From the UHGV virus genome UHGV-0322540: 12,346 nucleotides of DNA; one strand, given 5' to 3'. Below the pieces are notes generated by a model. It ran no database searches. It was given only the letters and a program-made list of their open reading frames with translations, and was not told the origin of the DNA. Source of the DNA: a virus. Positions 5,437-9,394 of this stretch are shown here, piece after piece (position 1 is the stretch's first letter; each line of letters starts with the position of its first letter). The position numbers and the translations under genes are program-made.

Positions 5437-5492
5437 AGCAATTTAGATAATCGTGCAGACTACGCCCCTCATATCACATGGAAGGTACTACA

Positions 5493-5903
5493 ATGGCTCA
5501 GGTTGCCATTTTTAAACAAATATTCGATAAAGTGCGAAATAATTTAAACTATCACTGGTTTTATTCTGAACTAAAACGTCACAATGTCTCACATTACATT
5601 TACTATTTAGCCACAGAGAATATTCATCTTGTTCTTGAAAACGATAATACGGTTTTAATAAAAGGACAGGGTAAGGTTGTAAATGTAAGATTTTCAAAAA
5701 ATAAATGCCTTATAGAAGCCACCTTAAAAGGATTCAAATCAGGAGAGTTATCATTTTACGAATACAGAAAAAATCTTGCTACAGCAGGGGTTTTCAGATG
5801 GATTACAAATATCCACGAAAACAAAAGGTATTACTATACCTTTGATAATTCATTACTCTTTACTGAGAACATTCAGAACACTACACAAATATTTCCGCAC
5901 TAA
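5493..5903 (+). CDS. DUF1398-like protein (YbcV/YdfO-like), function unknown
   Basis: ORF track gives 5478..5903, but the second ATG at 5493 has a GGAAGG Shine-Dalgarno about 9 nt upstream, giving 136 aa ([42 protein letters not shown]...). Strongly AT-rich compared with neighbours. Resemblance to YbcV/YdfO is from memory only. Confidence 0.62.
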
Positions 5904-6252: not shown

Positions 6253-6774
6253 TCAGCACGCGATATCGAGAGTCAACTGCAGTTGCTCGCGCCAGTACTC
6301 AACATTTGCTTCAATAACCGGCTTATCCCATCGCCAGCGAGCCATCTCTCTTGCCCCATTGCTGGCTTTTGATTTCCGGTCATCGCGAATGCGACATGCT
6401 TGCTCATATTTCTGCTGCTCAGTCAGTTCACCGCGAAGCAGACTATCAATGTGCAGGTCGCACCACACAGCAAAACGAGCATCACACCAACGGGCAAATG
6501 CAACTGAAAGTTTTGGATGTAGCCACGTACCACCACCCCTGTCCTTTCGTGCCTTGCTGGTTTTTACATACCTCGATTGTGAGGGATGTAAAATTTGAGA
6601 TTCTTTCCCGGTCAACGCTTCGTCTAAAGCACGAACGTATTCAAGCGTTTCTGCCAAACGCATCCAGTTATCAATGCGTTTCCCAAATCTCTCAGCAACA
6701 CCTGTGACGTTGATCCAACCATCAGTGTTGAAACTGACAATTTCACCTTTGTAATTAAGTGGCACGATATTCAT
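6253..6774 (-). CDS. KilA-N domain (APSES-type DNA-binding) protein
   Basis: 173-aa ORF MNIVPLNYKGEIVSFNTDGWINVTGVAERFGKRIDNWMRLAETLEYVRALDE...GGGTWLHPKLSVAFARWCDARFAVWCD..., showing the characteristic KilA-N core (tW.hP.La..FA.W). AGGTAA Shine-Dalgarno-like sequence about 7 nt upstream. Same strand as, and downstream of, the lysis genes. Confidence 0.68.
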   Translation of the reverse strand: MNIVPLNYKGEIVSFNTDGWINVTGVAERFGKRIDNWMRLAETLEYVRALDEALTGKESQILHPSQSRYVKTSKARKDRGGGTWLHPKLSVAFARWCDARFAVWCDLHIDSLLRGELTEQQKYEQACRIRDDRKSKASNGAREMARWRWDKPVIEANVEYWREQLQLTLDIAC

Positions 6775-6979: not shown

Positions 6980-7417
6980 TTATTTCAGACATTGCGTCCT
7001 GATGTACTCCTGCAGGTAGTTAACCTGCGCGGTTATCCTGTCGATTCCACTTCGGAGACGGTAATAATTGAGTTCAGCATCTGCTGTAAGTCTTGGGCTT
7101 TCTCCATCGCCCATGCTGCTGGCTCCGGTCTTTGACTTTGCACAGGAGGCGGCGACTTGCAGCCGCTTACGCCCAGCAGAAACATCATCACGGAGACTTT
7201 CGATAGTCGCGTTAGCATCAGCAAGTTCCTTTGTATATCTGGCATCGAGTTCTGCTACGTCACGTTGACGCTTCTGCATGTCAGCGATGATGGATGTGGC
7301 TTTGTCGCGCTGTTCTTTGTAGGTCATGGCGTTATCACGGTAATGATTAACAGCCCATGACAGGCAGACGATGATGCAGATAACCAGAGCGGAGATAATC
7401 GCAGTTACTCTGCTCAT
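6980..7417 (-). CDS. Rz: Rz, inner-membrane spanin (i-spanin)
   Basis: ORF track begins at MGAAMSRV...; from the internal Met the N-terminus [30 protein letters not shown] matches lambda Rz as recalled. That start (7417) overlaps the endolysin stop in an ATGA arrangement. About 145 aa with an N-terminal transmembrane segment and coiled-coil-like remainder. Confidence 0.9.
7033..7218 (-). CDS. Rz1: Rz1, outer-membrane lipoprotein spanin (o-spanin), embedded in Rz in the +1 frame
   Basis: ORF 7033..7245 lies entirely inside Rz in another frame. It contains a lipoprotein signal (..[19 protein letters not shown]|[14 protein letters not shown]..) with lipobox V-S-G-C and a proline-rich mature part typical of Rz1. 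The start at 7218 is my choice of Met and is uncertain. Confidence 0.75.
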
Positions 7418-7917
7418 TGCTGCCCCCACAAACAGACTTCACGCTCAATCTCACGGCGAGTCATCAGCCCTTTCCATTGCTTACCGCCAGCATATGTCCA
7501 GCGACGTAGCTGATCACATGCGCCTTTGATATCGCCCTGGTTTATTTTGCGAAGAAGCGTCGATGTTCTGAAATTGCCAGCACCCACGTTGTAAACGAAT
7601 GAGTAAAGAGCGCCGCGCGTTGTTTCCGGTATATCGACTTTGATGTACGGGTTAATTTGTCTGGCGACCGTGGCAAGGTCTTTATTCAGGAGGGCTTTGC
7701 ATTCTGCTTCGGTATACGTTTTACCGAGCATGATGTCTTTTCCGGTGTGCCCGTGGCATACAGTCCATACACCAACAATATCTTTGTATGGTATGTAGCT
7801 GACACCTTCCAGACCATCGTTACCACTCGGTCCAGTGATTAACACAGATGCTATAGCAATAGCCCCGCCACTTATCGCCGCTATTACGCTATTTCGTAGT
7901 GCCGGTGACATTGCCAT
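7414..7917 (-). CDS. R: SAR endolysin (T4-lysozyme-like muramidase, glycoside hydrolase family 24 type), phage-21 R-like
   Basis: 167-aa [62 protein letters not shown]... The N-terminal Gly/Ala-rich weakly hydrophobic segment is a signal-anchor-release domain, followed by an E...D...T catalytic arrangement. Closely resembles the phage 21 endolysin as I recall it; it is not the lambda R transglycosylase. Confidence 0.9.
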
Positions 7918-8092
7918 TCAATCTGTCCTCGCGCTCTTTGCGCTTGTAGTACCAGTTGATGCCAAATGTGCCGACAGTACAAAGAATACCAATGATGACA
8001 GCCCAGTCATTCAGGGAGAGAATGCCACCCATCGCAGTCAGTCCTCCGAAGCTGTAACTGAACCATTCTCTGATTTTGTCCATACGGTACAT
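7889..8092 (-). CDS. S: Class II holin, pinholin-like, with dual start (MYRM)
   Basis: 67-aa [60 protein letters not shown]... with two predicted transmembrane segments (the first Gly-rich) and a charged C-terminal tail. Two in-frame Met codons (8092 and 8083) are separated by a basic residue. It overlaps the endolysin start by 29 nt and is paired with a SAR endolysin. Confidence 0.82.
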
Positions 8093-8498
8093 GCTCTACC
8101 CCTTCATTGAGGGGATTTGCTCTATTTAATTAGGAATAAGGTCGATTACTGATAGAACAAATCCAGGCTACTGTGTTTAGTAATCAGATTTGTTCGTGAC
8201 CGATATGCACGGGCAAAACGGCAGGAGGTTGTTAGCGCGACCTCCTTCCACCCGCTTTCACGAAGATCATATGTAGAAGGCCGCAGCGTAACTATCACTG
8301 ATGAATTCAGGATAGCCAGTGGCTACGGCTCAGTTTGGGTCGTGCTGTTGCTGGGCGGCGATGACGTCTGTACGCATTTGGTGATCCGGTTCTGCTTCCG
8401 GTACTCGCTTAATTCAGCACAACGGAAAGAGCACTGGCTAACCAGGCTCGCCGACTCTTCACGATTATCGACTCAATGCTCTTACCTGTTGTACAGAT

Positions 8499-8556
8499 AT
8501 AAAAAATCCCGAAACCGTTATGCAGGCTCTAACTATTACCTGCGAACTGTTTCGGG
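8499..8556 (-). terminator. tR' intrinsic terminator (3' end of the 6S RNA)
   Basis: On the minus strand: stem CCCGAAAC (8556-8549) / GTTTCGGG (8515-8508) with an internally paired loop, then A and a T-run (8506-8499). Matches the lambda tR' region GGGATTTTTTATATCTG as recalled. Confidence 0.75.
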
Positions 8557-8693
8557 ATTGCATTTTGCAGACCTCTCAGCCTGCGATGGTTGGAGTTCCA
8601 GACGATACGTCGAAGTGACCAACTAGGCGGAATCGGTAGTAAGCGCCGCCTCTTTTTATCTCACTACCACAACGAGCGAATTAACCCATCGTT
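8499..8693 (-). ncRNA. 6S RNA: short pR'-initiated leader transcript ending at tR' (substrate for Q antitermination)
   Basis: Distance from the predicted pR' start (about 8693) to the tR' T-tract (about 8499) is about 195 nt, consistent with the roughly 194-nt lambda 6S RNA. Sequence is lambda-like throughout. Ends are approximate. Confidence 0.6.
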
Positions 8694-8699
8694 GGGTCA

Positions 8700-8728
8700 A
8701 ATTTACCCAACTTTATTCAAAAAGTCAA
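8700..8728 (-). promoter_or_regulatory. Late promoter pR' with overlapping qut site
   Basis: On the minus strand: -35 TTGACT (8728-8723), 17-bp spacer, -10 TAAATT (8705-8700), followed by the initial transcribed sequence ...TGACCCAACGATGGG... carrying the -10-like pause element. Matches the lambda pR'/qut arrangement as recalled, immediately downstream of Q. Confidence 0.65.
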
Positions 8729-8770: not shown

Positions 8771-9394
8771 CTAACGTGTGACCGTATTCAAAATGCTGTC
8801 TGCGATTGACTCTTCTTTGTGGCATTGCACCACCAGAGCGTCATACAGCGGCTTAACAGTGCGTGACCAGGTGGGTTGAGTAAGGTTTGGGATTAGCATC
8901 GTCACAGCGCGATATGCTGCGCTTGCTGGCATCCTTGAATAGCCGACGCCTTTGCATCTTCCGCACTCTTTCTCGACAACTCTCCCCCACTGCTCTGTTT
9001 TGGCTATATCAACCGCACGGCCTGTACCGTGGCAATCTCTGCATCTTGCGCCCGGCGTAGCGGCACTACGGCAATAATCCGCATAAGCAAATGTTGCGAG
9101 CACTTGCAGTACCTTTGCCTTAGTATTTCCTTCAAGCTTTGCCACGCCACGGTATTTCCCCGATACCTTGTGTGCAAATTGCATCAGATAGTTGATAGCC
9201 TTTTGTTTGTCGTTCTGGCTGAGTTCATGCTTACCGCAGAATGCAGCCATTCCGAATCCGGCTTGTGATTGCGCCATCCCCATAGCAGCCATCACATCAG
9301 TACCGGAAAGGGAGTCAGAAGCCGTGGCCCGTGGTGAGTCGCTCATCATCGGGCTTTTTGGCGAATGAAATTTAGCTACGCTTTCGAGTCTCAT
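8771..9394 (-). CDS. Q: Late-gene antiterminator Q (lambda type)
   Basis: 207-aa [86 protein letters not shown]..., recognised as lambda Q (same length) with its Cys-rich zinc-binding region (CRDCHGTG...CGRCKG). Confidence 0.96.

Follow-up and report, generated by a model that had tools for sequence, protein, structure and literature searches.

The time at which a phage lyses its host weighs heavily on its fitness, and the dual-start holin systems of lambda S and S21 serve as textbook models. In lambdoid phages, it is normal to find mosaic joints at the boundaries of genes, and work on S21 reportedly found that unrelated lambdoid holins have in common both the dual-start motif and a stem-loop at the Shine-Dalgarno (SD) sequence. 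In lambda, an upstream stem-loop at nt -21 to -7 gates ribosome access to the GGGGG SD for Met1, from which the antiholin is made, and UAAG at -6 to -3 serves Met3, the holin start; the resulting ratio is about 1:2 (bioRxiv 10.1101/2025.05.14.654169). Mutations in the stem shift both the product ratio and the lysis time (summarised in bioRxiv 10.1101/2025.05.14.654169). A basic residue between the two methionines is the signature of those dual-start holins that have been tested, as in MKM of lambda and MKSM of S21 (PMC9636201). The holin of Haemophilus phage HP1, the type member of Pfam family PF16080, behaves in experiments as a pinholin-like protein with a SAR endolysin as partner, and it has neither a dual start nor a known antiholin (PMC7312051).

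We analysed a 12,346-nt stretch of virus genome UHGV-0322540 (hereafter the window), in which all genes relevant here lie on the minus strand. A lambda-type late leader there gives way to an HP1-family holin gene, and the boundary between the two modules falls, as judged by alignment, within a hairpin that holds the holin SD. By analogy with lambda, this hairpin would probably set the antiholin:holin ratio of a dual-start holin and, through it, the time of lysis.

The late leader and its match to lambda

Taken as a whole, the window is best matched by lambda itself and by lambda-like phages of E. coli. Against lambda (NC_001416), blastn aligns window positions 9400-8090 with lambda 43880-45188 at 97.3% identity over 1312 nt, and the homology to lambda 43886-45170 takes in both the late promoter and the terminator. 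The window therefore has a lambda-type leader from Q through pR′, tR′ and the spacer, just as the preliminary description had stated. Within this match lies the Q antiterminator gene (8771..9394, minus strand), which encodes 207 residues, 204 of them identical to lambda Q, and scores 192 bits against Pfam Antiterm (PF03589). The nin region is upstream of Q on the same strand.

A promoter scan located TTGACT-17-TAAATT at 8700..8728 on the minus strand, which we infer to be pR′; the alignment with the lambda pR′ region has two substitutions nearby. The terminator tR′, at the end of the 6S RNA, was read from the sequence at 8501..8559 on the minus strand (AAUCCCGAAAC...GUUUCGGGAUU followed by a U run), in a stretch identical to lambda. 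The distance from the predicted pR′ start to tR′ is ~193 nt, in agreement with the known length of the lambda 6S RNA. From tR′ to the holin hairpin runs an untranslated leader of ~390 nt (8115..8500, minus strand) that is 97–99% identical to lambda and reaches 99.3% over the last 150 nt before the CCCC; its part from 8338 down is also common to Salmonella P22-like phages. Phage 21 is unlike the window in this region, having its own Q21 and pR′, a tRNA-containing leader and a hairpin of unrelated sequence. The window gave no RNA family match in Rfam (gathering threshold) and no tRNA match in ARAGORN. Downstream of the lysis cassette the minus strand carries the lambda-type genes Nu1, A, W and B, and a KilA-N gene lies at 6774-6253 on that strand.

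A mosaic lysis cassette

The gene that follows the leader (7889..8092, minus strand; 67 codons) encodes a class II holin of the HP1 family. It scores 75.1 bits against PF16080 (cut-off 28.8), is assigned to the PHROG 20 holins and has two hydrophobic segments followed by a charged C-terminus; among the 45 homologues found, all but one (P0043) carry PF16080. The first transmembrane domain (TMD1, residues 10–28) is weakly hydrophobic, with 47% G/A/S/T, much like the SAR-type TMD1 of S21, the second is strongly hydrophobic, and charged residues abound in the C-terminus. S21 is built in the same way, with two TMDs, the first of them weakly hydrophobic and rich in G/A/S/T, and with charges in its C-terminus. 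Membership in the S21 family was nonetheless rejected: the holin scores 19.5 bits against PF04971 (cut-off 26; S21 itself, 122 bits), and BLASTP aligns it with S21 at 28% identity over 49 aa with E = 0.05. The HP1 holin, although of the same Pfam family, differs in its length of 78 codons, its host and its P2-like genome.

The endolysin gene (7414..7917, minus strand; 167 codons; PF00959) overlaps the 3′ end of the holin gene by 29 nt. Its product is 94.5% identical in amino acid sequence to phage 21 R, a protein that the OL657228 annotation calls a SAR endolysin. The E37/D46/T52 triad (Glu-8aa-Asp-5aa-Thr) is present together with a G/A-rich, SAR-like N-terminal segment, placing the protein among the R21-type SAR endolysins of the T4-lysozyme fold (GH24). 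Phage-21-like DNA (96.8% identity) is confined to 7871-7301, that is, to the endolysin gene from about codon 16 and the first 117 nt of Rz; it begins 18 nt past the holin stop.

The i-spanin gene Rz (6980..7417, minus strand; PF03245) is chimeric, with its first 117 nt lambda/21-like. A second blastn match to lambda covers this start of the gene (7417-7301) at 95.7% identity, whereas 7284-7169 matches at 76–78% and, overall, Rz beyond 7301 is about 77% identical to the Rz genes of lambda and phage 21. Embedded in it is the gene for the o-spanin lipoprotein Rz1 (7033..7245, minus strand), which was found by translation and a search for the lipobox (LLGVSGC) and scores 72 bits against Pfam Rz1 (PF06085).

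As read from these alignments, the cassette is a chain of modules: a lambda leader, an HP1-family holin, an R21 endolysin with the 5′ end of Rz, and a 3′ part of Rz/Rz1 of other derivation. Its original designation as a phage-21-type cassette holds for the endolysin and the 5′ end of Rz and fails for the holin. In function, the cassette is 21-like, combining a two-TMD class II holin with a SAR endolysin. That this holin is a pinholin is suggested by its SAR endolysin partner, by a TMD1 rich in G/A/S/T and by the experiments on the HP1 holin (PMC7312051).

A predicted hairpin over the holin ribosome-binding site

Between 8125 and 8090, the minus strand reads AUAGAGCAAAUCCCCUCAAUGAAGGGGUAGAGCAUG. 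The RNA is predicted to form the hairpin CCCCU-CAAUGA-AGGGG (8114-8099, or -22 to -7 from the ATG), with five base pairs and a 6-nt loop. Folding gave this hairpin, proposed in the preliminary description, as the minimum-free-energy structure in 41-, 81- and 131-nt contexts; on its own, it has an energy of -6.8 kcal/mol. The 5′ arm, CCCCU (8110..8114, minus strand), is the end of the lambda-type leader module and is the same in lambda and in each of the 121 IMG/VR loci with the leader end. The loop, CAAUGA (8104..8109, minus strand), opens with the first lambda mismatch at 8109 and appears to be the module boundary. The 3′ arm, AGGGG (8099..8103, minus strand), is the SD for Met1: it gives the best anti-SD duplex, at -13 to -5, and the SD pairing probability is 0.97. 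The spacer UAGAGC (8093..8098, minus strand) occupies the place of lambda UAAG (-6 to -3), and its GAG is possibly a weak second SD for Met4, as the lambda arrangement would suggest.

We scanned positions -30 to -1 with the 3′ end of 16S rRNA for blocks of -3 kcal/mol or better. One block was found, AAGGGGUAG at -13 to -4, with a best value of -8.0 kcal/mol; it corresponds to the 3′ arm, and the earlier statement that this arm is the only SD-like sequence ahead of the ATG is borne out. The predicted fold thus places a stem-loop directly upstream of the holin gene, with the SD for the first start in its 3′ arm.

The lambda hairpin, AUCCCC-UUAUU-GGGGGU, differs from that of the window in having six base pairs rather than five, a UUAUU loop in place of CAAUGA and an energy of -8.7 rather than -6.8 kcal/mol. 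The two nevertheless follow the same leader, occupy the same position (-21/-22 to -7), have CCCC in the 5′ arm and a G-run SD as the 3′ arm, are separated from the ATG by a weak purine stretch, and precede two in-frame starts split by a basic residue. On this comparison, the window hairpin is the positional counterpart of the upstream stem-loop of lambda S and reuses the CCCC arm of lambda. The preliminary description had drawn an analogy with the lambda sdi element; the parallel holds, and the shared position and CCCC 5′ arm make it more than an analogy. The differences lie in the starts, which are Met1/Met4 with Arg3 in the window and Met1/Met3 with Lys2 in lambda, and in the protein, since the two-TMD class II holin of the window is unrelated to the three-TMD S105/S107 of lambda. 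S21 resembles the window in its Met1/Met4 spacing (S21-71 antiholin, S21-68 pinholin) and in having its SD, at about -12 to -7, in the 3′ arm of a hairpin (UCCGUU/GGCGGA, -4.7 kcal/mol).

Judged by its own sequence, the hairpin does not exceed what chance would give: its z-scores against dinucleotide shuffles are -1.0 to -1.7, and when the upstream segment is shuffled, ~5% of the shuffles pair the SD as well as that of the window does. The significance of the hairpin rests on comparison. Read on the plus strand, the inverted repeat might instead be an intrinsic terminator for antisense transcription, and a pattern scan does list CCCCTTCATTGAGGGG followed by ATTTGCTCTA as terminator-like. The T run in the tail is poor, however, and the scan gave two such sites against a chance expectation of 1.0 ± 0.9; no notable plus-strand gene or promoter lies upstream, and the holin SD fully explains the position of the repeat. 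We give a terminator here almost no credence and rejected it as a pattern artefact.

Conservation of the hairpin among relatives

The loop differs while both arms are kept in lambda (UUAUU), in Salmonella phage PS34 (one substitution) and in the Enterobacter-type relatives of the L207 type (CGAUUUUGA) and in the L216 type (AUUUUCUC), and at least six versions of the loop occur between CCCC and GGGG arms. A second leader lineage, 65% identical to the first, keeps AAATCCCC...GGGGTAGAGCATG with either of the loops CGAUUUUGA or AUUUUCUC, and GGGGTAGAGCATG is identical in the Enterobacter-type relatives despite the 65% leader identity. Among the IMG/VR loci, nearly all minor variants affect the loop or the number of Gs in the run; the 3′ arm of one lambda-type locus, L082, has a T in place of a G.

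Relatives with unrelated leaders, from Citrobacter, Yersinia, Photorhabdus, Serratia, Pectobacterium, Providencia, Morganella and others, bury the SD with other stems (CCGA/UCGG, CCAUC/GAUGG, CACUCC/GGGGUG and CCUCC/GGAGG), as S21 does with UCCGUU/GGCGGA. The median SD pairing probability is 0.79 for 17 distinct dual-start leaders vs 0.56 for 188 control ribosome-binding sites of the same loci (Mann-Whitney p = 1.8e-4), and the mean for 22 distinct dual-start holin leaders is 0.795 vs 0.659 ± 0.043 when the upstream segment alone is shuffled (0 of 300 sets reach 0.795), figures in which the leaders are not phylogenetically independent and C-rich composition supplies part of the signal. MAFFT and RNAalifold yielded no consensus structure for 25 distinct holin leaders because the stems are out of register between leaders; the figures above come from folding each leader by itself, with two controls.

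These comparisons bear on whether the hairpin might be a by-product of a C-rich leader end lying beside a G-rich SD, leaving ribosomes unaffected. Such a reading would account for the weak z-scores, for the SD pairing of ~0.66 that shuffled C-rich upstream segments still reach, and for the lack of compensatory changes in the CCCC/GGGG lineage, whose arms never vary. We consider it improbable all the same, given that the arms are invariant despite at least six loop sequences and leader divergence to 65%, that unrelated leaders bury the SD with different stems and do so with significant enrichment, and that experiments have shown the corresponding lambda element, at this same place, to be functional. 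The recurrence of SD-sequestering hairpins before dual-start relatives supports the reading that we prefer, in which the hairpin would exert an sdi-like control over antiholin and holin initiation.

Placement of the module boundary

Uninterrupted identity with lambda stops at CCCCT (8114-8110), and the first mismatch is at 8109, in agreement with the earlier claim of a divergence just before the holin start. Past 8110, the blastn alignment needs three gaps to reach the ATG, setting CAATGAAGGGGTA-GAGCATG of the window against TATTG--GGGGTAAGA-CATG of lambda; from the sequence, this stretch from 8109 to the ATG appears to be an SD/ATG-like resemblance only. Neither blastn nor protein comparison found any similarity to lambda after the holin ATG (8092), so the lambda-like sequence does not continue into the holin gene, in line with the preliminary description.

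The window and lambda are thus 99.3% identical in the leader (150 nt), merely resemble each other from the 3′ arm to the ATG and have no homology in the holin ORF. For the window and the Enterobacter-type relatives (L207-L212), the corresponding values are 65% in the leader, 13 of 13 positions from GGGG to the ATG and 90.7% in the holin ORF. Since both comparisons switch at the loop, the 5′ arm belongs to the leader module, and the 3′ arm, the SD and the spacer belong to the holin module. Judged from these alignments, the module boundary is the hairpin loop, and the finest placement of the joint is about 8109-8100.

The IMG/VR loci divide in the same place. Among the 121 that contain the leader end, 95 have a complete lambda S ORF and 25 have this holin; one record, with a lambda S-type continuation, ends before completion of the ORF. 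The leader continues as CCCCTTATTGGGGGTAAGACATG with lambda S and as CCCCTCAATGAAGGGGTAGAGCATG with the MYRM holin, and in no locus does the loop and 3′ arm of one holin type stand before the other. A search of IMG/VR for CCCCV, CCCCTR or AAATD after the exact lambda-type leader found none, CCCCT being followed by T or C only, which indicates that in this database the exact lambda-type leader is joined to two alleles only.

A joint at or after the start codon would make the hairpin a diverged lambda stem-loop that stayed with the leader. The gapped lambda alignment does reach the ATG, with GGGGTA and CATG in common, and in one relative (L214) a third, unrelated holin is preceded by the hairpin, SD, spacer and M-F/Y-R-M codons of the MYRM type, so that the joint in L214 lies downstream of Met4. 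For the window, we find such a placement quite improbable. Next to a leader that is 99.3% identical over 150 nt, a loop that is mostly different and altered in length by 2 nt is too abrupt a change for point divergence; the loop and 3′ arm are never separated from their holin type; GGGGTAGAGCATG accompanies the holin into a 65%-identical leader; and an SD and a start codon alone would yield the 3′ similarity. We therefore retain the placement in the loop.

The dual-start motif of the holin

The holin gene begins AUG UAC CGU AUG (M-Y-R-M), with Met1 at 8092-8090, Arg3, and Met4 at 8083-8081, and both of the Met codons to which the preliminary description had referred are thus present in frame. 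Their spacing falls in the range of 1–3 codons, and the N-terminal extension contains a basic residue. The motif M-[YQH]-R-M is kept among 24 aligned homologues, where four entries without it start at Met4. More widely, M-x-R-M is kept in homologues down to 59% identity and M-[YQHF]-R-M or M-R-M to about 55%, and loci with 50–95% identical holins start with M-x-R-M, M-R-M or M-K-M. Position 2 is free to vary and the Arg codon changes synonymously (CGT, CGC, CGA and AGA), as expected if purifying selection acts on a translated Met1 extension with one extra positive charge. These patterns indicate that the extension is translated and under purifying selection. Because HP1 hol has no such motif, the dual start is a feature of this enterobacterial branch.

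Met4 lies 16–19 nt from the GGGG and has a weak GAG as its own SD-like sequence; initiation there may be inefficient. Neither the 81-nt nor the 131-nt fold contained anything stable or convincing as a counterpart of the intragenic stem-loop of lambda (nt 31–47).

The hairpin could also act on a single start, throttling total holin translation and so slowing the lysis clock with no antiholin involved. The rate of holin translation is known to set lysis time, the type member HP1 hol has neither a dual start nor a known antiholin, and some database entries for the present holin start at Met4. We judge this unlikely: the conservation of Met1 and Arg3, with synonymous Arg codons and a free position 2, would be unexpected if the extension were untranslated, and a basic residue between two methionines marks the dual-start holins that have been tested, those of lambda (MKM) and S21 (MKSM). 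Initiation at both Met1 and Met4 remains our favoured reading.

A model for start-site control

In the model that we favour, Q-antiterminated late transcripts from pR′ would run through tR′ and the leader. The hairpin would keep the strong SD (GGGG) in its stem and limit initiation at Met1, which would give a 67-aa presumed antiholin with an extra positive charge. Initiation at Met4, by way of the unstructured UAGAG or of the same SD after melting of the hairpin, would give a 64-aa presumed active pinholin. The ratio of these products would set the timing of membrane depolarisation, which in turn would release and activate the membrane-tethered R21-type SAR endolysin, and Rz/Rz1 would then disrupt the outer membrane to complete lysis. 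The use of both starts, the opposed action of the two products and a ratio set by the hairpin are inferred by analogy with the described dual-start systems.

The invariant arms are common to at least three unrelated holin types, namely lambda S, the HP1-family MYRM holin and the unclassified 105-aa MFRM holin of L214, and to two leader lineages with 65% identity between them; sometimes different holin types have in common the entire hairpin together with the SD and the M-x-R-M start block. It is conceivable, though doubtful, that the CCCC-loop-GGGG hairpin is an adaptor for plugging unrelated holin genes into Q-dependent late leaders. If it were, recombinants joined in or beside the loop would automatically regain start-site control, and the loop would represent a scar of recombination or else a quickly adjusted dial for the timing of lysis.

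These observations place the same layout, an SD-burying hairpin followed by Met-basic-Met, ahead of a third holin family that is common among prophages of E. coli and Salmonella. An exchange point between leader and holin inside a regulatory hairpin offers a natural example of joints that spare regulatory elements. Two annotation errors are corrected along the way, the assignment of the cassette to the phage 21 type and the start of the holin at Met4. What is new is modest: the documentation of this layout for the HP1-family holin branch, a boundary that sequence comparison pins to the loop from both sides, and, in the alignments, invariant arms round a hypervariable loop in two leader lineages and three holin types.

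Distribution of the junction

The junction is already in GenBank with the entry for Salmonella phage PS34 and is ordinary lambdoid mosaicism that leaves current understanding unchanged. PS34 (AJ011580, genes 23-13-19-15) has the same arrangement of leader, hairpin and holin with one substitution in the loop (CCCCTCTATGAAGGGG). The preliminary description had proposed a recombination point within a few nucleotides of the holin start that preserved the hairpin. The joint in the loop agrees with this; the presence of the same junction in PS34 and in many other phages and prophages means, however, that it is older and was not formed in this prophage. The PS34 cassette and the P22-like Salmonella phages Emek, SPN9CC and BTP1 share the leader-hairpin-holin-endolysin block (8338-7301) at 93–98% identity, with 97.5% in the holin ORF, and differ in that they have P22-type genomes whereas the window has a lambda-type head and terminase context. 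The same junction occurs in 25 IMG/VR contigs, and of 5426 complete E. coli genomes, 82 contain 80% or more of 7850-8350.

Leader ends shared between holin families

In L214 (IMGVR_UViG_3300033074_000193), one of the compared genome loci, we observed a holin of 105 aa (L214:7446-7790, minus strand; MFRMNTQNGFW...) that contains two hydrophobic segments, bears a long charged tail, lacks a Pfam match and constitutes a third, unclassified holin type. The gene lies behind the diverged lambda-like leader, a second lineage about 65% identical to that of the window, with a SAR-type lysozyme and Rz/Rz1 downstream. It has the hairpin arms, Shine–Dalgarno (SD) sequence and spacer (GGGGGTTAGAGC) in common with the gene of the MYRM holin, the 67-aa HP1-family holin of the window. 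The first four codons are also alike, reading M-F-R-M in the L214 holin and M-Y-R-M in the MYRM holin, and the two proteins are unrelated beyond them. In L214 the module joint is thus located 3′ of the dual-start motif.

In two further groups of loci (L205/L206 and L124-L126), where the holins are 79-85% identical, the antiterminator is a different one (PF06530, Phage_antitermQ) and the leader is unrelated. The leader end there reads ...CACCCGC-loop-GCGAGGTGAGAGC ATG and has an SD-burying stem of its own. Its 3′ part, GGTGAGAGC/GGAGGTGAGGCT ATG, is also found with holins of the phage 21 (S21) type, for example in Lambda_2E9, pointing to another family of leader ends which, like the first, different holin families have in common.

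When lambda is folded in an 81-nt context, the minimum-free-energy prediction is a structure other than the local stem-loop (L001:1341-1385, lambda 45140-45184). Instead, a 12-bp long-range helix is predicted between leader CUUAUUCCUAAU and AUUGGGGGUAAG, in which the SD would be buried as well. The window retains the leader half of this helix without the complementary 3′ half, and its local hairpin is predicted to win in every context folded.

Public gene calls of the MYRM holin disagree at the start region (window 8081-8092, minus strand; entries P0013, P0017, P0023, P0025 and P0039), with a 67-aa product from Met1 in some records and a 64-aa product from Met4 in others, and the dual-start motif is therefore hidden in databases. 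The adjoining endolysin is named rrrD by RefSeq.

Further mosaicism in the window

The lysis cassette contains two more mosaic joints, at 7871-7872 and 7300-7301. Phage-21-like DNA (96.8%) starts 18 nt past the holin stop, in the N-terminal codons of the endolysin, and stops 117 nt into Rz, the remainder of which matches lambda and phage 21 at only ~77% identity.

Upstream, a 65-nt leader segment (8275-8338; ACTGAGCCGTAGCCACTGGCTATC...GCGGCCTTCT) is 97% identical to the phage 21 DNA directly after tRNA-Thr. In several Salmonella P22-like phages, some with a tRNA-Thr nearby, homology to the window starts exactly at 8338. This position resembles one border of a slot that holds tRNA genes in other lambdoid phages; neither the window nor lambda has any (0 by ARAGORN).

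Between Rz and Nu1, at the place of bor and small ORFs in lambda, the window has a gene with a KilA-N domain (6253-6774, minus or late strand; 173 aa) and, on the opposite, plus strand, a DUF1398 gene (5478-5903; 141 aa), both of which look like morons or accessory genes.
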